IMG/VR virus record: IMGVR_UViG_3300044730_002015
Location: 32,001-96,000 of that record
Length of the DNA: 64,000 nucleotides
DNA from: a virus
Reading direction: 5' to 3' (one strand)
Shown: piece after piece, positions 11,003 to 55,284 of the stretch
How positions within the stretch are numbered: position 1 is the stretch's first letter
Layout of the letters: every line of letters starts with the position of its first letter
Notes under the pieces: generated by a model
The model's database searches: none
What the model was told of the DNA's origin: nothing
What the model saw: only the letters and a program-made list of their open reading frames with translations
Made by a program: the position numbers and the translations under genes

Positions 11003-11497
11003 TTATCGCAGAAATTCTGCGATATCTAAATCATACTCAAGACTATTTACACGATGTACACCCATGAGATAAAGAACAAAGCTGGCTACCGATGAGCCGC
11101 GGCCCACACCGTATATGATACGGTTGGCACGCATGACATCTACCAAGTATTTCAAGTAGCACAGCAAGGGAAAAAGATCTCGATCAAAATACATCAATAG
11201 TTCTTGTCCAGCACGCTGTCTTTCGGCATCGCAGGTGCAGAGATCCAAAACATATTGCGCGATATCCAATGTTCTATATTCTTCGGGCATGAGCCAGTGC
11301 TGTTGTGCCTGTTTATCCCAAAGATCTACAGGTACTGATATGTCAGTTGCTGTTTCAAATGTCAGGCCTAGATCTAAGCCATCTTGGCAAATAAAATCTA
11401 CCAGCACATGACCTAGATCAAGATCGGGATTTCTTTTAAGTGCTTGGATCAGATCTGATTCACTGTATACGAATCTGCCTACTGCATCAACTTTCAT
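11003..11497 (-). CDS. dnaE: DNA polymerase III alpha (DnaE) partial subunit of a split C-family polymerase
   Basis: ERQRAGQEL, YLVDVMR, GVGRGSSVASFVLYLMGVHRVNSLEYDLDIAEFLR matches the DnaE GRGS palm region; start re-called at MKVDAV. Confidence 0.8.
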   Translation of the reverse strand: MKVDAVGRFVYSESDLIQALKRNPDLDLGHVLVDFICQDGLDLGLTFETATDISVPVDLWDKQAQQHWLMPEEYRTLDIAQYVLDLCTCDAERQRAGQELLMYFDRDLFPLLCYLKYLVDVMRANRIIYGVGRGSSVASFVLYLMGVHRVNSLEYDLDIAEFLR

Positions 11498-12083
11498 TTT
11501 TGGTGAACTGTAGTATTTTGCTAACGGATTCAGATTTACCTTCATCGTCATCAAAGTGTAGATCTAGATCTCTCCAGGATTCCATGGGTTTGAGTTTAAC
11601 TATTTTACCACCAACATCTGTGAAATTACAGTAGTTAGGTGAATTTTCCACCCACCAACCGGTATCGTGGTCCAGAGATCCCGTGCTTTCATTTTCGTTG
11701 TGTAGATAGTGTACCCACTGTCCTTGGTTAGAGGCGATGCCGACATCCGTGACGATCAATGCTGTTTCTGCAATGGTGTTGAGTTTGAGATATATGGCTA
11801 TGCCCACTATCTGATCATAGCACTCATCGGGCAAGTCGATTACTCGGATGCCTTGGCTCTGCAGTGCTGAAATGCGATCCTTCTTAGAAGAATCTACCAA
11901 CACTGCACCGTCTAACACGTGATCAAAAAAATGTCTCCAACGATCAATGGCTATGTTCTGTGCTAGGGAATCTACTGTGTTGGTATAAAACTCTAGGCTA
12001 CAGGCCATTTCCTGTATGCAAAATTGATCGTTGAGAAAAATTCCTACATTGAAGGCATAACTCTTTTTCAGTCTTACATTCAT
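11487..12083 (-). CDS. Hypothetical phage protein
   Basis: 198-aa coupled ORF. Confidence 0.75.
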   Translation of the reverse strand: MNVRLKKSYAFNVGIFLNDQFCIQEMACSLEFYTNTVDSLAQNIAIDRWRHFFDHVLDGAVLVDSSKKDRISALQSQGIRVIDLPDECYDQIVGIAIYLKLNTIAETALIVTDVGIASNQGQWVHYLHNENESTGSLDHDTGWWVENSPNYCNFTDVGGKIVKLKPMESWRDLDLHFDDDEGKSESVSKILQFTKNES

Positions 12084-14694: not shown

Positions 14695-14730
14695 GGAAAA
14701 TCTGCCCTAGCCAATATGGCAAGGCAGATT
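14695..14730 (-). terminator. Intrinsic terminator after the modification gene block
   Basis: AATCTGCC/GGCAGATT outer stem, GCCA/TGGC inner stem, short U tail on minus. Confidence 0.55.
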
Positions 14731-14756: not shown

Positions 14757-15590
14757 CTACTCTAGGCCCATCTCGCGGCGTATTTTTGTGGCCGAAATAG
14801 CGTGTGTGGCTTCGTCGAATGACTCTTGCTCGATTCGATAGCCTACATCACGTCCGTAGGTGATGTTCACTATGTTGGGCACCAGGATGATTTCGTACTG
14901 TCCTTGATAAACAGGATCTAGATCACGGCGTATAAGTGATTTGACCTGCTCGGCAGCAAAAGGATTGGAGCCTTGCCAGCCCTGGCAGTCACGGATCATG
15001 ATTGCAACCTGACCGGTCTTGGCTATGGCACGCTCAAACAAGGCCCTATGGCCCGCATGCCAAGGCTGCCAGCGACCCAGCATCTGCACAGTTTCTCGCT
15101 GCCAGTCGAACGTGGGCCTGCGACGGTTTTCCAAGATATGGCTGCCCACGAACTCTGCCCACTTTTCTGCTGCCTGTTCAGTGATGCGGAAGTCGTAGAC
15201 TTCGGGTGGGGTGAAAACTTTGTTGGTGTCTTCAAAGCGACCTTTTTCAATGGTGTCAATCCATATGGTCCAATCGGCCTTGAAGTTGTTGCGCATCTCG
15301 GGCAAGGGTGCCACGAAATCCACTATCACAAAATCATTCAAGAATGAATCTGCTAACTCGCGCATACGCAGACTCTGGCGTATGCGTCCTTCGTGTGAGA
15401 AATCCCAGTCATTGTATTTTTTGCGCACATCGTCCGCGTTAATCCATTTGACCTGCGCACGGCTAGCACTGATGTTTTCAGCGTCGGTGTGATACAGATC
15501 GCTGTGTTGTTCCAAATAAGTTTTGAGTCGTTCAGCAAAGTAGGTCTTGCCCGCACCGGGCAAGCCCATGATCAAGATTCTCTGTGCCAT
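14757..15590 (-). CDS. Adenylylsulfate-kinase-like domain fused to HxGH nucleotidyltransferase domain
   Basis: GLPGAGKT, NADDVR, DFSHEGRIRQ, FVAP, FTPP (CysC-like); GRWQPWHAGH, NPF, ISATKIR (HIGH superfamily). Confidence 0.8.
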   Translation of the reverse strand: MAQRILIMGLPGAGKTYFAERLKTYLEQHSDLYHTDAENISASRAQVKWINADDVRKKYNDWDFSHEGRIRQSLRMRELADSFLNDFVIVDFVAPLPEMRNNFKADWTIWIDTIEKGRFEDTNKVFTPPEVYDFRITEQAAEKWAEFVGSHILENRRRPTFDWQRETVQMLGRWQPWHAGHRALFERAIAKTGQVAIMIRDCQGWQGSNPFAAEQVKSLIRRDLDPVYQGQYEIILVPNIVNITYGRDVGYRIEQESFDEATHAISATKIRREMGLE

Positions 15591-15605: not shown

Positions 15606-15812
15606 TTAGTTTACGATTTGACCTGCAGAGTCTGCAGTTTGATCATTGGCTGCATCTGTTGCTTCTGCTGGAGCCTGCTCAGGGATCTGAGGACGCACCT
15701 GCTCAATGATGTCACGGATCACTGGGCCAAAGCCAGTTTTGATCGGCAGTTCATTGAGTGCTGTCAAGATAGCATTCAGTTGATCTACGGTTAATTTTAC
15801 GGTTACTTCCAT
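15606..15812 (-). CDS. Small hypothetical protein
   Basis: AAGGAG RBS; CTAAGTA motif at 15839-15845. Confidence 0.7.
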   Translation of the reverse strand: MEVTVKLTVDQLNAILTALNELPIKTGFGPVIRDIIEQVRPQIPEQAPAEATDAANDQTADSAGQIVN

Positions 15813-15845: not shown

Positions 15846-16784
15846 TTAGATAAAAGTAGGTCCCGAATCTTTTGCGTCATCGATCACTTCGCCGAAGAAA
15901 GTCTGTTTGGGCCGAGTGCTGTTACGTGGATGATCTAGATTCTCTTCGTTCAATGGCACATCATCTATTTCACGCCAGAATTCTTGGCCGGCCACTGCAT
16001 CTAATATTTCTTTAGGCAGCACATCTTCGGGATAACTGGCAGTGGATTTCAGCACTTTTCTCACAGCGTGCATGTCTTCAAAGCCATAAACATCTGCATC
16101 ATTTTCCTGATGTATGTTCACTAGATTTTCAAAGTCATGCTCATAGTATGTTTCACCCAAGAAGTCATAAACTTTTTGCATGGTCTCCCTAGGATCAGTG
16201 ACCAAATCTCGATATTCGATAAAGTGTATGTTGGCACGATATCCTTCGGCAAGGGCTTTTTTCAAGCCATCAAAGGACTGGCCCAAGATGCCAGGACCGG
16301 CTATGGCCCTGCAGCGATTCTCGTCATTGAGGGCTATGCCCGATCGTATCAGCATCTGATCCACAAAGTTTATGCGCTCGTTTACTATGTGCGGATTGCG
16401 ATGTATCATGGATATAAAAGACGCCAAGATCTCTGCCACATCACGCACAGGGTACAGCACTTTAGGATGCTCAATACCAAAGTATCCAGGAATGTAGTTC
16501 ATGCGATTGACCCAACTGCGATTCTTTTCAAACACCACAGGTCGGTCTGTGTCAGCATAATACTGATCTATCACAGAAGCGATAAGTTTTTGTCCAAAAT
16601 CATATTTGGGAAATGCCAAAAACAACTCGTCTTGGTTCAGTGCTTCTTCCAACAGCAGCATGGTTGGCACCACTGGTGAACTGGGTCCTGAATAAAATCT
16701 GGGATTCTGATTCAGTATGGCCGACAGCATGGTGCTGCCACTGCGTGGCAGGCCCGACATAAAATAATACTTTTTCTTGGTCAT
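15846..16784 (-). CDS. PAPS-dependent sulfotransferase family protein
   Basis: 5'-PSB motif SGLPRSGSTML, ILNQNP, 3'-PB VRD...S, YRDLVTDP...VYDFLG. Confidence 0.88.
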   Translation of the reverse strand: MTKKKYYFMSGLPRSGSTMLSAILNQNPRFYSGPSSPVVPTMLLLEEALNQDELFLAFPKYDFGQKLIASVIDQYYADTDRPVVFEKNRSWVNRMNYIPGYFGIEHPKVLYPVRDVAEILASFISMIHRNPHIVNERINFVDQMLIRSGIALNDENRCRAIAGPGILGQSFDGLKKALAEGYRANIHFIEYRDLVTDPRETMQKVYDFLGETYYEHDFENLVNIHQENDADVYGFEDMHAVRKVLKSTASYPEDVLPKEILDAVAGQEFWREIDDVPLNEENLDHPRNSTRPKQTFFGEVIDDAKDSGPTFI

Positions 16785-17692
16785 GATTGTCCTTGTAATT
16801 GGTCGGTGGCTGCGATAATTTCTTCAACATTGAAGATCTCTTGATCTTCAGTAAAGGGATACTCGCCTTCGTTGCCGTTGAAGTCAAAGTCAAACAAGTA
16901 ACTGTGCGGCAGTTTGAATTCGTAGGGTATCTTGGTGCAGATGTTGGTGTGCAGGTCATAGCCAAACACCTTGGGACTGGTGCCATTCCACAACACCACA
17001 GAAGGCCGTCTCAGTGCTGCCGCTGTGTGTTGCAAACAACTGTCAATCAGGATGTTTTTTTGGCTGTGCAGCAACAGGCTAAACAGTTCCATGGTGCTGA
17101 GGAATTTCTGTGGGGTAGCAAACACATGGTGAGCACCCTTGAGTTTGGGTGAGTTTATTTTGGTCACTTGATAAATGGTGTAGTCTTTGCGATAGTGATC
17201 TACCAGAGCCTGTCCTATGTTTTCCGGCATGTCTCGGGTCCAGGAATAGGCCTTGGCGTCAGTGGTCATCATTCCACCATTGGTATGCAGTACCATGATG
17301 GGTTTGGTGCCGCGTATCCAATACTTCCTGCTGAGATCCTGTTGCAACTTGTTGAGTTTGACCACAGGAGTTTCGCCTTTGTATTCTATGCCATACATCT
17401 TGCACCAGGTCTGTACCAATGGTAATTTTTGGTGTATATGATCTGTGGTAAAGTAAGGTTCATGATGGAATATCAGAGAATCTTGATCTTTGATGTAATT
17501 TTGATAAAAGTAACTTGTACCACCAATGGTGTACACACGGTCTACAAAATCTAGATTGGTAAACACATCGGGATAGGCGCACACCACTATGAGCTTGCGA
17601 TCTGGATGATTGTTCTTGATGGTACGGGCCACGGCTGTGGCTGCCACGTGTTTGCCTAAACCACCTTGTACATGGAAAATGCTGTATTTCAT
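16781..17692 (-). CDS. GT-B glycosyltransferase (GT9/heptosyltransferase-like)
   Basis: GGLGKHVAAT N-terminus; IDSCLQHTAAAL..PSVVLW C-terminal motif. Confidence 0.75.
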   Translation of the reverse strand: MKYSIFHVQGGLGKHVAATAVARTIKNNHPDRKLIVVCAYPDVFTNLDFVDRVYTIGGTSYFYQNYIKDQDSLIFHHEPYFTTDHIHQKLPLVQTWCKMYGIEYKGETPVVKLNKLQQDLSRKYWIRGTKPIMVLHTNGGMMTTDAKAYSWTRDMPENIGQALVDHYRKDYTIYQVTKINSPKLKGAHHVFATPQKFLSTMELFSLLLHSQKNILIDSCLQHTAAALRRPSVVLWNGTSPKVFGYDLHTNICTKIPYEFKLPHSYLFDFDFNGNEGEYPFTEDQEIFNVEEIIAATDQLQGQS

Positions 17693-19002
17693 TTGAGTCC
17701 TTGTGTATGTCTTTCCAACACAGTAAAGCCATTGTTGTTAGTTTTATGTATGCGGAAGCGCCAGTGCGGATTTTTTATTAGGAATTCAATTATGGCAGTG
17801 AGCAGGCCTTGGCGATCACGACCATCTTCGCCGCACAGGCCAAAGGTGTAAGTGTCATGGAATGCTATGTATCGTCGGGCCTTGTTGCCATGCAAGGCCA
17901 ATTCTTTCTGTAACTGTTCGTAGGTATGCAAGGTGTCAATAAACAGCAAATCCATGGGTTCGACTTCTATATCCAGCACATTGGCTTTGATATATTGAAC
18001 AGACTTTCCCTGTGCCTGGGCTTTGAGGAATAGTTCGCGCACCTTAGGATGCAACTCAATATCAAAACTCAACAATTCAACATCGCTGGCCAAGAATGCA
18101 CGAGTACTCACGCCGGTCCTGACTCCAAACTCCACCACTGTCTTGCACTCTTGGGCCAACTCGTATAGTATGTGTACATTTTCATTGATGTCGCTCACAT
18201 TGGTACGAGCCCAGTGATATTCCTGATCGAATACCGTGGCATTTGTGTTATTGAGCTTTTTTGCCAGCCGCTGCCTACTGTACATATTAATCATGTTCTG
18301 GGGAATATCCCAGTTTTTGCTGTTTTTAAAATGTCCGTAGGCCAAGAGATTTTTACTGTCTAGTTCTATGCGGCAGTTGATCTCACTGTCGGGATCATTG
18401 AACTTGGTCAGCGTTTCTGAGATGGTGCCTTTTATGCGGTTGCTGTTGATGGCAAACACACGTTTGGCTCGTTGTGCAAAATAGTCGTCACCGTACCATA
18501 CCTGATACAAACTGGGAATCTCTTGATAAGATTGTTTCATCATGAACATACAGATACCAAATGCCCAGGCCTGGCCACCAATGGGCTTGGTGTCATCGTA
18601 ATTTAATCTAACAATTTCTTCTGCTGTGTCAATGACATCGTCTATGCGATAATTGTTTTGTCTGCCGCGTAGATTCACACCAATGAGATCGCCGGCTTGA
18701 AATGGAAAATCGCTGACCATGTCAATCACGTCGGCTGATACAACAATGTCATCGTTTATGATGCCCAGGACATGTGACTGAGCCCGATAGTAACCTTCGT
18801 TCCAGGCAGGGTTCACAAAGATATTTTTATTGTATGATACTAACTCTACTTTCACATGGTTCAGCACGGACCATTGGGGTCTAGATTTACGATTGTTATC
18901 AATCACTATGATCTTGGCTATTTTGTCGTGATTGGCGTAGATTTCTAGCGCCTGATCAAAGTCCTTGACCATCCACATGGTGGGAATCACTACATCTATC
19001 AT
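17689..19002 (-). CDS. GT-A (GT2-like) glycosyltransferase fused to class I methyltransferase
   Basis: VVIPTMW, IIVIDN, VNPAWNEG, INDDI, WYGDD; then VVEFGVRTGVST, DLLFIDTLHTY, FHDT. Confidence 0.85.
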   Translation of the reverse strand: MIDVVIPTMWMVKDFDQALEIYANHDKIAKIIVIDNNRKSRPQWSVLNHVKVELVSYNKNIFVNPAWNEGYYRAQSHVLGIINDDIVVSADVIDMVSDFPFQAGDLIGVNLRGRQNNYRIDDVIDTAEEIVRLNYDDTKPIGGQAWAFGICMFMMKQSYQEIPSLYQVWYGDDYFAQRAKRVFAINSNRIKGTISETLTKFNDPDSEINCRIELDSKNLLAYGHFKNSKNWDIPQNMINMYSRQRLAKKLNNTNATVFDQEYHWARTNVSDINENVHILYELAQECKTVVEFGVRTGVSTRAFLASDVELLSFDIELHPKVRELFLKAQAQGKSVQYIKANVLDIEVEPMDLLFIDTLHTYEQLQKELALHGNKARRYIAFHDTYTFGLCGEDGRDRQGLLTAIIEFLIKNPHWRFRIHKTNNNGFTVLERHTQGLK

Positions 19003-19658
19003 AGTTTTTTGTCTTGTTTGAAATCGCCTTTGTACACTTTGTTGCCAATGTGAGAAACTGTGTAGTGTGGATTGACCCAGATATCATAGCCCAGTTCCAA
19101 TATCTTTCGGCTGAGCGTGATATCTTCTCCAACAAATCCACCATTCAATGAACTGTATTCGCAGATGTTGCGCAATTTTTTGCCACGGAATTCTAGTTCT
19201 GGATTGCTGGTCCAAAGATCCTCAACTACTTTGCGAGACATTTTGAGAAAACCAGTGCCGGTTTTTTGTACTTTGAAATAACCATCTGCGGGATCTTTTT
19301 CCATGTTTTGTGGGATCCAGATGTTGTAGGTCAAGGGTTCTTTGTCGCCTTTGTTGACTACTGGTACTGTGATCACATCCTTGTTGGACTTGACAATGTC
19401 AATCAAAACCTGCGCGGTCCAGTACTCATCATCGTCGATGAATACCATGGCGTCATAACCATCTTTGTAGGCAAGATTAAACAGTTCATTCCTGGCCATG
19501 GGCAAGATGCTTTCGTTGGCCAAAAATATGCAGCGTATGTCAATGTTGTGCGCCAGGCCCAGTTTGATTGATTCGCAGAGACTATGCACAAAATAGGCAT
19601 CTACCTTTTGATCCAGGCAGGGAGTTGCTACCAAAACTCGTTTTGTTGTTTTTTCCAT
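18999..19658 (-). CDS. GT-A fold glycosyltransferase-like protein
   Basis: VLVATP, ARNEL, FIDDD, GTGFL, GEDI, SHIG. Confidence 0.8.
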   Translation of the reverse strand: MEKTTKRVLVATPCLDQKVDAYFVHSLCESIKLGLAHNIDIRCIFLANESILPMARNELFNLAYKDGYDAMVFIDDDEYWTAQVLIDIVKSNKDVITVPVVNKGDKEPLTYNIWIPQNMEKDPADGYFKVQKTGTGFLKMSRKVVEDLWTSNPELEFRGKKLRNICEYSSLNGGFVGEDITLSRKILELGYDIWVNPHYTVSHIGNKVYKGDFKQDKKL

Positions 19659-30283: not shown

Positions 30284-33200
30284 TTAAATAACATTGGAGC
30301 CGTTGACAAACCAAGTGTCAGTGGCAACCTTGACCAAGGTGGCAAAACCATACCAGGCCAAAGTTCTATTGCCTGTTGTGGCATTGCCTGCTAGATACAG
30401 TGTTACACCGGCGTTGGCCCCGATAGTACAGTTGGCTCCACTTTGATTGATTAATGTTACAGCGGCACCAATGGGCAACGGCACAGAACTATTGGCTGGA
30501 ATATTTATTGTGACGCCACCTGAGGCAGTATAATAGTGTTCGCCCAGATCCGCCAACGCGATAGTGGGTGTGCCAGTCCAGGAAATCTGTGGAATATCCC
30601 TGTAACCTGCTACGATATTACCCGGCAAATATAGTTGGCCGTCGGAAGCAAAATTCCACCGATTGGATCCAGTTTGTATGGTAGTGTTGGCATTGGCCCC
30701 TACAATGGTACCGCTGGCCGAGTTGATGTTTAGATTGCCGGCCTGATCAAAAGTCCAGGTATAGGCACCAGTTTTGATAGTGGTGTTGCTGGCACTGCCT
30801 ACGAAATTGCCAGCAGCCACATTTGCGGAACTGGTTATATTGGCAGTGGTCAAAATTGTGACAGCGGCATTTGATGCAAGATAATCGGCCACATTGGAAT
30901 TGCCATATGAGCCACCACCGCCTGCGATACCAGTCAAGAATGCGCCATTACCAATAAAATAATTACCTGCAACGTTGGCAGTGGTAGTGATGTTTGCAGT
31001 GGTCAGTACAGTGACAGCAGCATTTGAGGCTAGATAGGTGGCTACATTGGAATTGCCATATAATGAAACCTGTGTGCCGTTGGCATAGTTTACAGCAAAG
31101 GTATTGCCAGGCAATGTCAAATTGCCAGTGTTGTCAAAATTCCAAGTATATGTGCCTGCTATCAAACCCACGTTGGGATCTGATCCTGCTGCTCCTATGA
31201 AGTTATTGGCAGTTATGTTGGCCGACGTAGTGATATTGCCAGTGGTCAGTATGGTTACAGCAGCATTTGAGGCAAGATAGTTGGCAACATCTGCGTTGCT
31301 GTATGAGCCACCACTACCACCCAATGATACCTGTGTGCCGTTAGCGTAGTTGACTGCAAAAGTGTTTCCGGGCAGTGTGAAGTTTCCAGTGTTGCCAAAA
31401 GTCCAGTTATAGACTCCAGTCCTGATAGTGGTATTGCTGGCACTACCGCCTACGAAATTAGCAGCACTGATATTGGCACTGCTGGTGATGTTGCCTGTGA
31501 CATTTAAACTGGTGCCTGTGGCAGCACCAATGTTGGGTGTGACCAGATTGGCACCGGCCTTGACCGAGATGTTGCCACCGCCGTCAAACGCCGTGGTGTT
31601 GTTGTCTACCTTGGCAGAAATAGTGGTAGTGGCAAGACTGATACCTGCGGCGGTGTTGGCCGAATATACCTGGCTTTGGCTGAACACAGCAAACTGTATG
31701 TTGCTGGTGCCAAAAACTATGGCAGTATTTGGCGCATCAACAATAAAGGCCGAGCCTTTGTTGACATTGCCGCCGGTGGTGTAGAAGTAGTCGTTGATGC
31801 CCAAGGCATCTACATTGGCCAAACCAGCGGTGTTTTCTGTGGAAGCCCTGGTGATAGCTGTGGCGTTGGACCACACATACACGCCATTGTGTGCGCCATT
31901 GGCTTCGTTCTTGACCAAGATACGAGTGTTGGCTGTCTGTACATTGGCTGTGTCAATGAGATTGAAACTACCAGTGGTGGTCAGCGTGGCACCTATACCG
32001 TTGCCTACGCCGTTGACCTGATTGTAAGTTATGGTACCGCCTGTGGCATCAGCCAAGGTACCTGTGGTGGCTGCCAACACAGCTTCGTGATAGGAAATGG
32101 ATGTACTGGCCAGGTTATCAACATAGATCTTTGTGGCAGCATCTTGATCTTGTACTGGGTTGGTGAGATTATTGATATAGTAATTGTTGGCATTGACATT
32201 GCCTGGTATGGTAAGGGTACCAGTGCTGCCAAAGGTCCAGAGCTGACTGCCAGTTCTGATGTTGGTATTAACACCGGTGCCTGAGAAATTACCAGCATTG
32301 ACATTGGTCGAACTGGAGATATTGGCAGTGGTGGTGATAGTGACTGCTGCGTTAGATGCCAAATAGTCTGCTACATTGGCATTGCTGTAGGAACTACCAG
32401 CTGAGATTCCAGTTAAGAATGCGCCGTTACCAATAAAGTAGGTACCAGCCACGTTGGCTGCGGTAGTGATATTTGCAGTGGTCAGTATAGTTATTGCTGC
32501 ATTTGAAGCCAGGTAGTCGCTTACATTGGCATTGCCATATGTGCTGCCTCCACCACCAGAAATACCTGACAAGAAATATCCATTGCCCAGTATGTAACCA
32601 CCTTGTACATTGGCAGTGGTAACGACGTTACCTGTGAGATTGGGCAGGGCGCCGGTATAGGTAGGCAAGTAGTTGGCAACATCGGCATTGCTATAACCTG
32701 CCGCTATACCAGTTAAGAAAGCACCGTTGCCCAAGACATATGCGCCCTGTACGTTGGCAGTAGTGGTGACGTTGCCAGTGAGGTTTGTCAGCGCACCTGT
32801 ATAGGCCGCAACATTGGCGTCGTCATATCCACCTGTGGCAAATCTGATGTTGCCTAATATGTAGGCTCCCTGTACATTAGCAGTGGTTGTGACATTGCCA
32901 GTGAGATTGATCAGCGCACCTGTATAGGCCGCAACGTTGGCATCATTGTAGCCACCTGTGGAGAATCTAATATTTCCTAGTACATAACTTCCCGAAACAT
33001 TGCCGGTGGCTGTGATATTGGCTGCGGCAGTGATATCGTTGGTAGATATAAAGTCATAGGCCGATATGCTGCTGGAAGCGATGATGCGTGTGCTGTTGCT
33101 GGTCAATGTTTGGAACGGCAGATAAAGTGTGTTGTTGATGTATACATCGTTCCAGCGACGAGTGTTGTTGCCAAGATTGTATGCGCCATTGGCCGCAGGT

Positions 33201-53487: not shown

Positions 53488-55284
53488 TTAATTAGTCGCC
53501 ACTCCTATACTTATCGCACTTAAAGATTGCCCAGTTGTCAGTGCGATCCTGACATAAATTTCGTTGGTTGCTGTCAAGGAACTTGATACAGTACCAAAGG
53601 TACAGGTCAATGCCGCGTTGGTAACTGCTGTATTCAGTTGTGCTGCGCCACCTAGACTGCAGCCATCGGAACCGTTGCCTCCTGCGCCGGTACCGGGATA
53701 TCCTGCACCGGCATAGGCCTGAGACATGTCCATCCAGCCATTGAGCCCCGAACTGGAGTCAATGGCTGATCCAGGCAACGCCACCCATAGACCTGCCAGC
53801 GTACCGGTATAGTTAATATCAAATTTTTGTAAATCTTGTCTGACAAATTTAAATGTAAAATACTGTGTGCCACTGCGGCCTGCACTGAGATTGGGACCTT
53901 CCGGCAGATATCCCACGCTATAGTCGGTCACGTCGTGTTTCATAACACCGCGTGTGTTGATGCCTACTACTGTGGCATCGTAGGTTTGTAGTGTGGAGCT
54001 TTGACTGTTGAATGCCGAAGCATTGGCCGAATAGGAAGGTGTGTTGCCACCACCCGGATTGACAATACGGAAGGCTGAGGCAAATCCTGATCCCACTGCG
54101 GGATCTACTGCTATATTTGTTTCATCTATGGTTGTGGTATTGCCATTTTTATAATGTATGACAGATCCGCTGAGTGCCGATGTCAAGGATTGAGTAGTGA
54201 AATTATAACTGTTGTCTACTCTGACACTGGGCCCTGTGCTGCTGGATCCAAATCCTGAATTTACTACATTGGCCATGACATTGGCCGTGACTGTGCCAGA
54301 GGAAACATAAAGATTCCTGGCCAAGGGCACAGCCACGTTGGCAGCGGCATAGGTTAAATTTGTTGGGCTACTAAATGCACCACCGGCAAATCCCAAGGCC
54401 AAGATATTGCCGTTATTGGGATAGGTATCTCCACTGAGACGATTGACTGCAAATGTAAACTCAAATGCATTGTTGCCTGTGTAAAAAGGCACAGTGCTGC
54501 TGTAAGATAACTCTGGTGTGACCTGGGGTGTACAACCAATGGAAAAGAACTGCGGTGATCCCGGAGAACCTGCATCATAGTACCATACTGGCGCATTGGT
54601 AGTGCCAGCCGAACTGTGTGAGATGGCCACTTGATTCCATCCAGACAGCACAGTACCCTGGGCCTGGGCGCTGAACACATACCAAAAACCCGAATCAATA
54701 TTGGCATTGGCCTGGCTGTAGTCATAGTTATTGGTAATAACTAGGTTACCATAGGCGCCATTGACATTGGGATTGGCATCAGTATTGAATGTCACTGTGC
54801 CAGCAGCCGCGCCATTGACAAACGCCGTTATAGTACCTGAGTCTCCTGGCCCGGTATTGGCAATTGTATTGGTATTGTAGTTGGCACTACGATAAACTGT
54901 CAACAGCGTGCCAGCCGATACAGTGACATTGGCGTTGGGCTGTGCAGTGTTATTGGTCTGTGTAAAGTCGGCCATCCTTGCTGATGTGCCCGAACTGGTG
55001 ATACTCAGCGTTTGGTTGCCAGGAAATGCCGCAGGTGGCAATGGTACCAATTTTCCTAATACCTGGTTGATAAGTGCTATGCTGTTGGTAACCGTGGTGT
55101 TGGCAGTGAGAGATACTGCATTTGAAACGAGATTGCCTTGGCTGGAATTGCCAATGGGAATGGCATTGCCAAGAATAGACAGAGAGTTAGCATTGATATT
55201 ATAAATGTTGGAGCCGTCGCCCCAGAGATAATCTGCGAGAACATTACCTGCATATAATGATGTAAATCTTTTGATATAACTCAT
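53488..55284 (-). CDS. Virion structural protein
   Basis: C-terminal domain paralogous to that of 48295-53487 (GYLPxGPxL..GRSGxQYFTF, LNGW, VRIAL). Confidence 0.75.
   Translation of the reverse strand: MSYIKRFTSLYAGNVLADYLWGDGSNIYNINANSLSILGNAIPIGNSSQGNLVSNAVSLTANTTVTNSIALINQVLGKLVPLPPAAFPGNQTLSITSSGTSARMADFTQTNNTAQPNANVTVSAGTLLTVYRSANYNTNTIANTGPGDSGTITAFVNGAAAGTVTFNTDANPNVNGAYGNLVITNNYDYSQANANIDSGFWYVFSAQAQGTVLSGWNQVAISHSSAGTTNAPVWYYDAGSPGSPQFFSIGCTPQVTPELSYSSTVPFYTGNNAFEFTFAVNRLSGDTYPNNGNILALGFAGGAFSSPTNLTYAAANVAVPLARNLYVSSGTVTANVMANVVNSGFGSSSTGPSVRVDNSYNFTTQSLTSALSGSVIHYKNGNTTTIDETNIAVDPAVGSGFASAFRIVNPGGGNTPSYSANASAFNSQSSTLQTYDATVVGINTRGVMKHDVTDYSVGYLPEGPNLSAGRSGTQYFTFKFVRQDLQKFDINYTGTLAGLWVALPGSAIDSSSGLNGWMDMSQAYAGAGYPGTGAGGNGSDGCSLGGAAQLNTAVTNAALTCTFGTVSSSLTATNEIYVRIALTTGQSLSAISIGVATN

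Follow-up and report, generated by a model that had tools for sequence, protein, structure and literature searches.

To our knowledge, sulfate is activated by only two types of enzyme, the homo-oligomeric Sat and the heterodimeric, GTP-coupled CysDN. CysDN catalyzes the reaction that we propose below for a small viral protein domain, with a CysD fold that is unrelated to that domain, resembles reductases of 3'-phosphoadenosine 5'-phosphosulfate (PAPS) and needs the GTPase CysN. In PAPSS1/2 (1X6V) and in the fusions of Sat with a kinase of adenosine 5'-phosphosulfate (APS) in Aquifex (2GKS), Thiobacillus (3CR8) and Penicillium (1I2D), a module of the APS kinase family and a module of the HIGH nucleotidyltransferase superfamily are carried on one chain. 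Here, we analyzed a viral gene, P0001, which resides at positions 14757..15590 on the minus strand of a 64,000-nucleotide (nt) stretch of the IMG/VR record IMGVR_UViG_3300044730_002015 (positions 32,001 to 96,000 of the record; hereafter, the window is this whole stretch). Its product of 277 amino acids (aa; the stop codon is included in the coordinates) joins an APS-kinase-like domain to a small nucleotidyltransferase domain. A preliminary description drawn from the sequence alone had proposed a minimal bifunctional PAPS synthase. On comparative evidence, we consider it probable (approximately 0.65) that this fusion is a compact sulfate-to-PAPS enzyme with a third kind of ATP sulfurylase.

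The gene at 14757-15590 is real and conserved. A chance open reading frame (ORF) is excluded by homologues numbering in the thousands (8000 candidates were scored, giving 2081 representative clusters at E ≤ 1e-3), by the match of PHROG 10255, annotated as 'kinase', across both domains (1.4e-47), and by a confident AlphaFold2 model (mean predicted local distance difference test [pLDDT] of 93.4 for the whole fusion and 94.0 for the C-terminal domain). In public resources, members of the family are labeled 'adenylylsulfate kinase', 'hypothetical protein', 'cytidyltransferase' or as nicotinamide mononucleotide adenylyltransferase (NMNAT) and phosphopantetheine adenylyltransferase (PPAT), and ESM Atlas returned generic 'cytidyltransferase' clusters alone. 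Literature searches for a PAPS synthase of phages or for an ATP sulfurylase outside the canonical types retrieved nothing relevant, and no paper on the family was found.

The fusion shares with human PAPSS1 the kinase-first order (matched in the latter over 55-144 for the kinase and 406-598 for the sulfurylase, as the preliminary description had stated for animal PAPSS) and, in our proposal, the chemistry from sulfate through APS to PAPS. The resemblance to PAPSS1/2 ends at the C-terminal module, which is not of the Sat type. Compared with PAPSS and the Sat fusions, the second module comprises ~110 rather than ~350-400 residues (the PUA and Sat catalytic domains in the latter), does not belong to PF01747 and comes without a PUA-like domain; the lid of the kinase is cut short, and the entire protein is of 277 instead of ~550-630 aa.

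A trimmed kinase and a minimal nucleotidyltransferase on one chain

The N-terminal domain (residues 1-159; 15114..15590, minus strand) is a trimmed P-loop kinase of the APS kinase family, in agreement with the CysC-like kinase seen in the preliminary description. The Walker A motif, GLPGAGKT (G9-T16; 15543..15566, minus strand), is present, with K15 invariant and T16 found in at least 90% of the family sequences. In Pfam, residues 1-105 matched APS_kinase with 28.1 bits, exceeding the gathering score (21.1), and the gathering score of KTI12 was passed as well. When a profile built from 48 diverse family members was searched against the sequences of solved structures, only APS kinases appeared at E of 5e-17 to 1e-10, and generic P-loop proteins followed, after a gap, from ~1e-5. 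Likewise, the top ~40 PDB matches of the full model in Foldseek were all APS kinases (E of 1e-6 to 2e-4), and the model displays the APS kinase fold.

The residues that contact APS are largely retained. The roles of the corresponding residues, as well as that of the catalytic lid lysine K562, are known in M. tuberculosis CysC (PMC4373884). In the alignment, K15/T16 correspond to K456/S457 of the CysC P-loop, D53 to the catalytic base D480, R56 to R483 that binds the phosphate and sulfate of APS, R69 to R497 that binds the sulfate, and F64 and F119 to F492 and F576, respectively, both of which stack on the adenine ring of APS. K15, T16, D53, R56, F64 and R69 are invariant or at least 90% conserved in the family, R56 being invariant, while F119 aligns with the Phe of FTGI (not scored). 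Both arginines and both phenylalanines of the APS-binding set are therefore in place. In place of LDGD, a motif of which the first Asp works via Mg-bound water and the second is the catalytic base, the fusion has I-N51-A52-D53. An Asn stands at the first Asp position both in the query and in the consensus of the family, with DGD kept in some members, and the second Asp, D53, is found in at least 90% of the family sequences. Judging from these alignments, the N-terminal domain would be a catalytic, trimmed member of the APS kinase family with a preserved APS pocket. An insert of ~20 residues after the P-loop helix (residues 29-48; 15447-15506), HSDLYHTDAENISASRAQVK, is confined to the query and its close relatives and shows the lowest confidence in the AlphaFold2 model (pLDDT ~64).

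The C-terminal domain (residues 160-277; 14760..15113, minus strand) is a minimal HxGH nucleotidyltransferase. The two motifs reported in the preliminary description, GRWQPWHAGH (G172-H181; 15048..15077, minus strand) and ISATKIR (I265-R271; 14778..14798, minus strand), lie within residues ~160-277, and its characterization of the domain as 'NMNAT-like' holds. Residues 170-240 gave weak matches to CTP_transf_like and to archaeal/NadM-type NMNAT, far under the curated cut-offs (29.9 against 181.2 bits for TIGR01527 and 31.9 against 127 bits for NF002243). A profile of the domain made from 49 sequences and run against all PDB sequences found archaeal NMNAT as the best match (1F9A, 4.5e-12), followed by NadM and, weakly, by NadR, PPAT, pantothenate synthetase and RibF. 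The structural comparison with Sat and NMNAT that the preliminary description had called for was run with VIA-align and placed the domain closer to NMNAT: the Z scores were 10.2 for NadM, 10.0 for NMNAT and 9.9 for PPAT. The suggested kinship with Sat through the HIGH superfamily was borne out as well, as the core of the domain superposes on Thermus ATP sulfurylase 1V47 with a Z of 8.5 over 115 of the 118 residues (5.2-6.0 for the other Sat structures). Foldseek with the C-terminal domain alone gave no match at E ≤ 0.001, and DSSP assigned only three strands in its model, with none at the position of the presumed fourth.

With archaeal/NadM-type NMNAT (1F9A, 1EJ2, 2QJT and 2QJO), the domain shares the GRFQPFHxGH and ISxTxxR motifs, the NPF loop, the first three strand-helix units and the fold (Z of 10.0-10.2). 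On the other hand, ~25 residues that lie between the third and fourth strands in NMNAT are missing from the family. In the HMMER alignment with 1F9A, profile positions 9-80 correspond to NMNAT residues 3-75 and the alignment resumes at 89, equivalent to residue 109, so that NMNAT residues 76-108 are replaced by only eight family positions (81-88). We take the missing segment, from 1EJ2 and 1F9A, to carry the nicotinamide-binding residues, i.e., the pocket for nicotinamide riboside. The residues G172, R173, Q175, H178, H181, G246, R247, G250 and R271 are invariant in the family, and R200 and S266 are nearly so. Among the conserved motifs found in this study, the YGRDVGY loop (Y245-Y251; 14838..14858, minus strand) alone separates the family from archaeal NMNAT; both this loop and R200 are family-specific features, and the partners of the family belong to sulfur metabolism instead of NAD metabolism.

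NMNAT and ATP sulfurylase share their chemistry, in which an oxyanion attacks the alpha-phosphate of ATP. The superfamily core and motifs of the HxxH and ISGTxxR types are common to the domain and Sat (PF01747; A. vinosum, yeast MET3 and Thermus 1V47), and both have a GRD motif, which in the domain stands after a presumed fourth strand. However, there is no detectable sequence relationship between the two, and of the Sat elements, the family has neither the RNP loop nor the mobile GxxKxxD loop, and neither the PUA nor the C-terminal domain. At the position of the RNP loop, QxRN(P), the HxxH is present, the Arg is shifted and QxRN is missing. The Pfam scan of the fusion gave no match to PF01747 or PUA_2, and the domain is of only ~110 residues, whereas a true Sat examined in a SAR86 genome has both PUA_2 and PF01747. 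The GRD loop of Sat follows the fourth strand and contacts the ribose of APS and, via the next backbone NH, the sulfate (PMC3779200). In the family, G246-R247-(D)-x-G250 follows the presumed fourth strand, as read from the sequence, and we provisionally take it as the topological equivalent of the Sat GRD loop. The loss of the nucleoside pocket and the gain of arginines are what would be expected if the acceptor had changed from nicotinamide mononucleotide (NMN) to sulfate.

Architectures drawn from the 2081 representative clusters show the same small domain in other combinations. In P0238 (311 aa), the order is turned around: the small domain, 44% identical to residues 164-276, stands in front of a textbook CysC, of which PF01583 covers residues 2-151 of 152 with 211.9 bits and in which LDGDNLR, SFISPF and KGLYKKAR are present. 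This protein was found on four contigs from at least three different samples and, thus, is not an assembly artefact. The domain order is likewise reversed in P0184, while P0256 and P0250 are stand-alone small domains of ~119-130 aa. The contigs of P0238 and P0184 are short and offer little genomic context. In the metagenomic protein P0154 (395 aa), a DUF4118 domain of the membrane-sensor type (61.5 bits) precedes a complete kinase/small-domain protein.

Association with sulfotransferases and APS reductase

Beyond viruses, the small domain occurs at 55-61% identity in Pelagibacteraceae (SAR11), SAR86, SAR116, Marinoscillum and others. We scanned cellular genomes at one genome per species. In 68 of the 80 cellular loci, separate genes encode the kinase (~135 aa) and the small domain (~124 aa), lying side by side and usually overlapping, and in six loci the two are fused. 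Five genomes were inspected in detail, three of SAR11 and two of SAR86, one SAR86 chromosome and one Pelagibacter chromosome being marked complete. No Sat or CysD was detected in these five SAR11/SAR86 genomes. All of them have at least one match above the Sulfotransfer_3 cut-off (strong in three), and AprA was found in the SAR11 genomes only.

SAR86 has been described as being without sulfate assimilation (PMC3358033, PMC11582366), and, according to these papers and PMC5069961, sat and cysDN are missing from most genomes of SAR11 and SAR86. In 81 SAR86-order genomes that are at least 85% complete, the small domain (called at E ≤ 1e-45) was found in 36 and Sulfotransfer_3 in 41; both were found in 34, the small domain alone in two, the sulfotransferase alone in seven and neither in 38. 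Hence, 34 of the 36 genomes with the small domain also have a sulfotransferase (Fisher p = 1.6e-13, uncorrected for phylogeny). Sat was detected in one of the 81 genomes and CysD in two, neither of which has the small domain. In seven SAR86 loci, a Sulfotransfer_3 gene (146 bits) is located directly upstream, giving the order sulfotransferase, kinase and small domain. SAR86 G004 has a separate CTP_transf_like protein of 372 aa, and most of the other SAR86 genomes give similar weak matches. Judged by its family match, this protein is a candidate for the housekeeping NMNAT and, if so, the small domain would not be needed for NAD synthesis.

The only Sat in the SAR86 set (G006, contig C7, L169:451-2604) is itself unusual, a fusion of 717 aa that comprises a PF00224 barrel (219.6 bits), PUA_2 and ATP-sulfurylase. 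We know of no description of such an architecture of a pyruvate-kinase barrel, PUA_2 and ATP-sulfurylase.

The association in SAR11 is with the APS reductase AprBA. SAR11 was reported to have no cysDNCHIJ or sat and to keep 'cysC', cysQ and aprA, cysC and aprA being co-distributed in Table 3 of that report (PMC5069961). Among 80 published Pelagibacterales genomes (the unpublished G158 was left out of 81), 63 of the 64 with AprA possess the small domain and none of the 16 without AprA does (p = 6e-16, uncorrected for phylogeny); Sat was found in three of the 80. The small-domain gene is ~0.4-1.4 kb from aprA in ~14 Pelagibacterales genomes. In G108, the kinase and small-domain genes directly adjoin the aprBA cluster and are followed, in converging orientation, by an ORF of 116 aa, aprA, aprB and an ORF of 265 aa. 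As far as the sulfur oxidizers considered in PMC3779200 are concerned, sat is the normal neighbor of aprBA. In some SAR11 genomes, the usual place of Sat beside aprBA is taken by the small-domain family.

The two additional ORFs of the G108 locus (L171, C1:310500-317500), namely the 116-aa ORF at L171:2519-2869 and the 265-aa ORF at L171:5214-6011, match no family; the latter, standing beside aprBA, may be an AprM-like membrane anchor. Near the kinase/small-domain pair of Candidatus Pelagibacter ubique HIMB4, there are two half-size Sulf_transp (YeeE-type) genes (L122:9592-10418), and a PF03601 protein, presumably a putative sulfate exporter of the YeiH type, is encoded directly upstream of the pair in the complete SAR86 genome (L100:6646-7545). 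These genes of SAR11 and SAR86 are possible sulfur-anion transporters.

In the window, the fusion gene is the last of six co-directional genes, which run in the order GT-A-like, glycosyltransferase/methyltransferase, GT9-like, sulfotransferase, 68-aa ORF and fusion. The sulfotransferase that the preliminary description had placed one small gene away is indeed there: a PAPS-type protein of 312 aa (15846..16784, minus strand; Sulfotransfer_3, 2.8e-15; Sulfotransfer_1, 7.8e-14), separated from the fusion gene by exactly one ORF. Its sequence includes GLPRSGST and VRDVAEILAS, stretches resembling what we take to be the definitions of the 5'-phosphosulfate-binding (5'-PSB) and 3'-phosphate-binding (3'-PB) motifs, respectively. 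It is the sole Sulfotransfer_3 match across the entire 169.5-kb record, in which neither a Sat gene nor a NADAR gene was found.

Related phages were compared at 80 IMG/VR loci, of which the homologues are 73-82% identical; 44 of these loci are flanked on each side by 3 kb or more. Sulfotransferases at these loci were searched for with a hidden Markov model iterated from the sulfotransferase of the window. A sulfotransferase on the same strand, usually a divergent one, lies at most 6 kb away in 22 of the 44 loci; in seven of the 80 loci, it lies within 25 nt. The entire operon block is kept in synteny at locus L055. At the loci without a nearby sulfotransferase (e.g., L005, L013 and L018), the commonest neighbors are radical-SAM proteins (8 of 141 ORFs), and carbamoyltransferases, RCC1-repeat proteins and genes of GTP cyclohydrolase I and PTPS were also seen. 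The fusion is present at 35-40% identity in phages of Xylella, Stenotrophomonas, Xanthomonas and Clavibacter. In the unrelated Stenotrophomonas phage Bhz60, a Sulfotransfer_4-like gene is found two genes upstream of the fusion gene (26.2 bits against a cut-off of 22.8). This phage (L001:4978-6741) and Xylella phage Bacata (L002) possess a conserved module of a Sulfotransfer_4-like gene (192 aa), a NADAR gene (92.6 bits) and the fusion gene, of which the starts and stops overlap.

Proposed reaction and competing explanations

We propose that the HxGH and ISxTxxR machinery of the C-terminal domain (~110 residues) moves AMP from ATP to sulfate, giving APS and pyrophosphate (PPi), and that R247 in YGRDVGY, together with R200, would suit a bare tetrahedral oxyanion. 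The trimmed APS kinase would then phosphorylate the 3'-OH of APS to yield PAPS, a step that is better supported, by homology, than the first one; by consuming APS, the kinase would pull the unfavorable first step forward. In the phage, PAPS would feed the sulfotransferase two genes upstream, which probably acts jointly with the operon's glycosyltransferases in modifying a glycan or a virion protein. In SAR11, the small domain could work with AprBA and convert APS and PPi to ATP and sulfate. Two considerations lead to the interconversion of ATP plus sulfate and APS plus PPi: APS or PAPS is handled by each of the three independent partners, namely the APS kinase, PAPS-type sulfotransferases and APS reductase, and the genomes that need APS chemistry and have neither of the known sulfurylases carry the small domain. 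The ATP sulfurylase activity raised in the preliminary description thus finds support in the fusion to CysC, the linkage to sulfotransferases, the co-occurrence in SAR86 and SAR11 and the absence of Sat and CysD, all of which is comparative evidence. The wider proposal is that the NMNAT-derived domain is a third, separate class of ATP sulfurylase that supplies PAPS for phage sulfotransferases, is the only sulfate-activating enzyme of SAR86 and is the missing partner of AprBA in SAR11. Taken as a whole, this proposal is still probable in our judgment, slightly less so than the activity of the fusion by itself.

A number of observations weigh against a sulfate-to-PAPS enzyme. As to the small domain, its first motif, GRxQPxHxGH, has the form of archaeal NMNAT and not the QxRNPxHxxH of Sat, its profile retrieved no solved Sat from the PDB sequences at E ≤ 10, and a comparison by hhalign with the bona fide Sat domain P0271:480-717 of a SAR86 genome yielded a probability of only 1.4%. 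The sequence comparisons characterize the domain as a cut-down derivative of archaeal-type NMNAT and not a member of the Sat family; membership of the latter was rejected, as Pfam, the PDB profile search and hhalign all indicate no relationship. As to the kinase, NCBIfam TIGR00455 was matched with 19.5-21.8 bits, well below the equivalog cut-off of 138.7. N51 aligns with D87 of hPAPSS1, in which D87A and D89A each abolish the APS kinase activity (PMC8528679). The lid is ~20 aa shorter than that of canonical CysC, with ~6 residues between the strand IWID and F119 compared with ~27 in the CysC half of P0238, and no clear counterpart of the conserved lid Lys (K562; KGLYKKAR) was seen in the family alignment. 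The canonical lid of ~30 residues with Lys and Arg (KGLYKKAR) is consequently not present. As to the genomic context, the remaining 22 of the 44 phage loci have no sulfotransferase within 6 kb and show mixed neighbors; a Pfam scan of 141 ORFs around these loci revealed no hidden sulfotransferase among the 25 most frequent families. In Sano-like phages, the NADAR gene adjoining the fusion gene hints at the chemistry of NAD or ADP-ribose. The statistics of co-occurrence ignore phylogeny, and many of the genomes are metagenome-assembled. Finally, P0264 (389 aa, metagenomic) joins the family kinase to a nucleotidyltransferase of the sugar-phosphate type (PF00483 / NTP_transf_3), implying that the kinase clade may serve more than one pathway of activated nucleotides.

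In the synthesis of the Campylobacter capsule phosphoramidate, a CysC-like kinase works with a nucleotidyltransferase. The fusion might similarly produce a cofactor that is like PAPS and is not PAPS, the small domain adenylylating selenate, phosphate, a phosphoramidate precursor or the like and the kinase phosphorylating the 3' position. Such a cofactor would agree with the pairing of the kinase clade with other nucleotidyltransferases in P0264, with the departures of the lid and the first Asp from canonical CysC and with the half of the phage loci that have no sulfotransferase nearby. We regard it as unlikely, given that the phosphosulfate-binding arginines and both adenine-stacking phenylalanines are conserved and that the recurrent partners, i.e., PAPS-type sulfotransferases, canonical CysC and APS reductase, all use APS or PAPS. 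A little less likely again is a fusion in which the kinase alone is catalytic, with APS delivered by the host sulfurylase and the small domain serving as a regulatory module that senses ATP, APS or PAPS, or as a module for oligomerization. The very small size of the domain and the three DSSP strands of its model would suit such a role, and Penicillium ATP sulfurylase (1I2D/1M8P) has a domain that we take to be non-catalytic and allosteric. Nevertheless, R173, H178, H181, R271 and the GRD loop are invariant across highly diverged members, and in the SAR86 genomes with sulfotransferases, no alternative candidate that could supply APS was seen: of the 81 genomes, Sat was found in one and CysD in two, and AprA was missing from both of the genomes in which it was looked for.

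The closest relatives in sequence and fold being archaeal/NadM-type NMNATs, the small domain could also still adenylylate NMN or nicotinic acid mononucleotide (NaMN) in NAD metabolism, for example to rebuild NAD+ against a host defense as NARP2/NARP3 do. Phage NadR-like enzymes that combine NMNAT and a kinase exist (PMC13464706), and the NADAR gene overlaps the fusion gene in phages of the Sano/Salvo type. The NadR-like enzymes, in which NMNAT is joined to ribosylnicotinamide kinase (RNK), and phage NARP3 Bas30_86 (9X6H/9X6F; PMC13464706) resemble the fusion in coupling a small-molecule kinase to an HxGH adenylyltransferase for consecutive steps, and differ from it in having the opposite domain order, an RNK instead of a kinase of the APS kinase family and the NMNAT segment between the third and fourth strands. 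NadR structures matched the C-terminal profile over the HxGH stretch only (16.7-22.1 bits; 19.5 bits in the comparison with the NadR-like group that includes Bas30_86), and no NadR was found among the 60 matches listed for the kinase profile. The ~25 residues missing between the third and fourth strands are, as we assume, those that bind nicotinamide, and the 29.9 bits obtained are remote from the equivalog cut-off of 181.2. Besides, the longer CTP_transf_like protein of SAR86 G004 may be its NMNAT, the linkage to sulfotransferases, CysC and AprBA fits no explanation related to NAD, and NADAR is not encoded in the searched part of the phage record. Altogether, we judge a role in NAD metabolism to be very improbable. 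A counter-defense function, considered from the NADAR neighbors and NARP3, was dropped because the record has no NADAR gene, the Sano-like module includes a sulfotransferase-like gene and the kinase is not an RNK. An enzyme like CoA synthase, i.e., PPAT joined to dephospho-CoA kinase, was also rejected: PPAT fits the fold (Z of 9.9), but the kinase is of the APS kinase family and no context of CoA was seen. We therefore retain the formation of PAPS from sulfate as the preferred function of the fusion.

The phage genome and the meaning of the family

Three overlapping upstream genes of the operon, on the minus strand (16781..19658), are GT9-like (16781..17692), a glycosyltransferase/methyltransferase (17689..19002) and GT-A-like (18999..19658). 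The 68-aa ORF (15606..15812, minus strand) that separates the fusion gene from the sulfotransferase is equipped with a strong ribosome-binding site, AAGGAG, and matched no family in the profile scans; a relative of 52% identity occupies the same position at locus L055. The ATG of the fusion gene, 15 nt past the stop of this ORF, has no Shine-Dalgarno sequence of its own. A terminator-like hairpin followed by UUUU (14697..14730, minus strand) lies 27 nt past the stop codon of the fusion gene, with a folding energy of -19.8 kcal/mol (z = -6.25; an equally good fold in 0 of 200 shuffles), and marks the fusion gene as the end of the operon.

The IMG/VR record of 169.5 kb was estimated by CheckV to be only ~48% complete, and the virus is accordingly a jumbo phage. 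Proteins of phiCbK-like jumbo phages of Caulobacter and Brevundimonas share ~33% identity with a structural protein encoded at 53488..55284. Elsewhere in the window, 11003-11554 encodes a 183-aa fragment whose match to phage DnaE-type polymerase families (PHROG 11127, 1.2e-35) is confined to the C-terminal part of the latter, and a gene for a PstS-like phosphate-binding protein is located at 1581-2624 (PHROG 5385, 1.6e-63).

If the proposed function is correct, the family would illustrate how, in a HIGH-family adenylyltransferase, the pocket for the acceptor can be pared down until it takes a bare oxyanion, and biocatalysis would gain a very small enzyme for regenerating PAPS. In virome surveys, the reading of a family now labeled 'adenylylsulfate kinase' or 'hypothetical protein' would change. 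Many large aquatic phages would carry, in self-sufficient form, their own pathway for the sulfation of glycans or virion proteins. A hole in the pathways of SAR11 and SAR86, which rank among the ocean's most abundant bacteria and keep AprBA or several PAPS-type sulfotransferases, would also be filled, implying that these 'sulfate-assimilation-deficient' bacteria of the ocean do handle activated sulfate.

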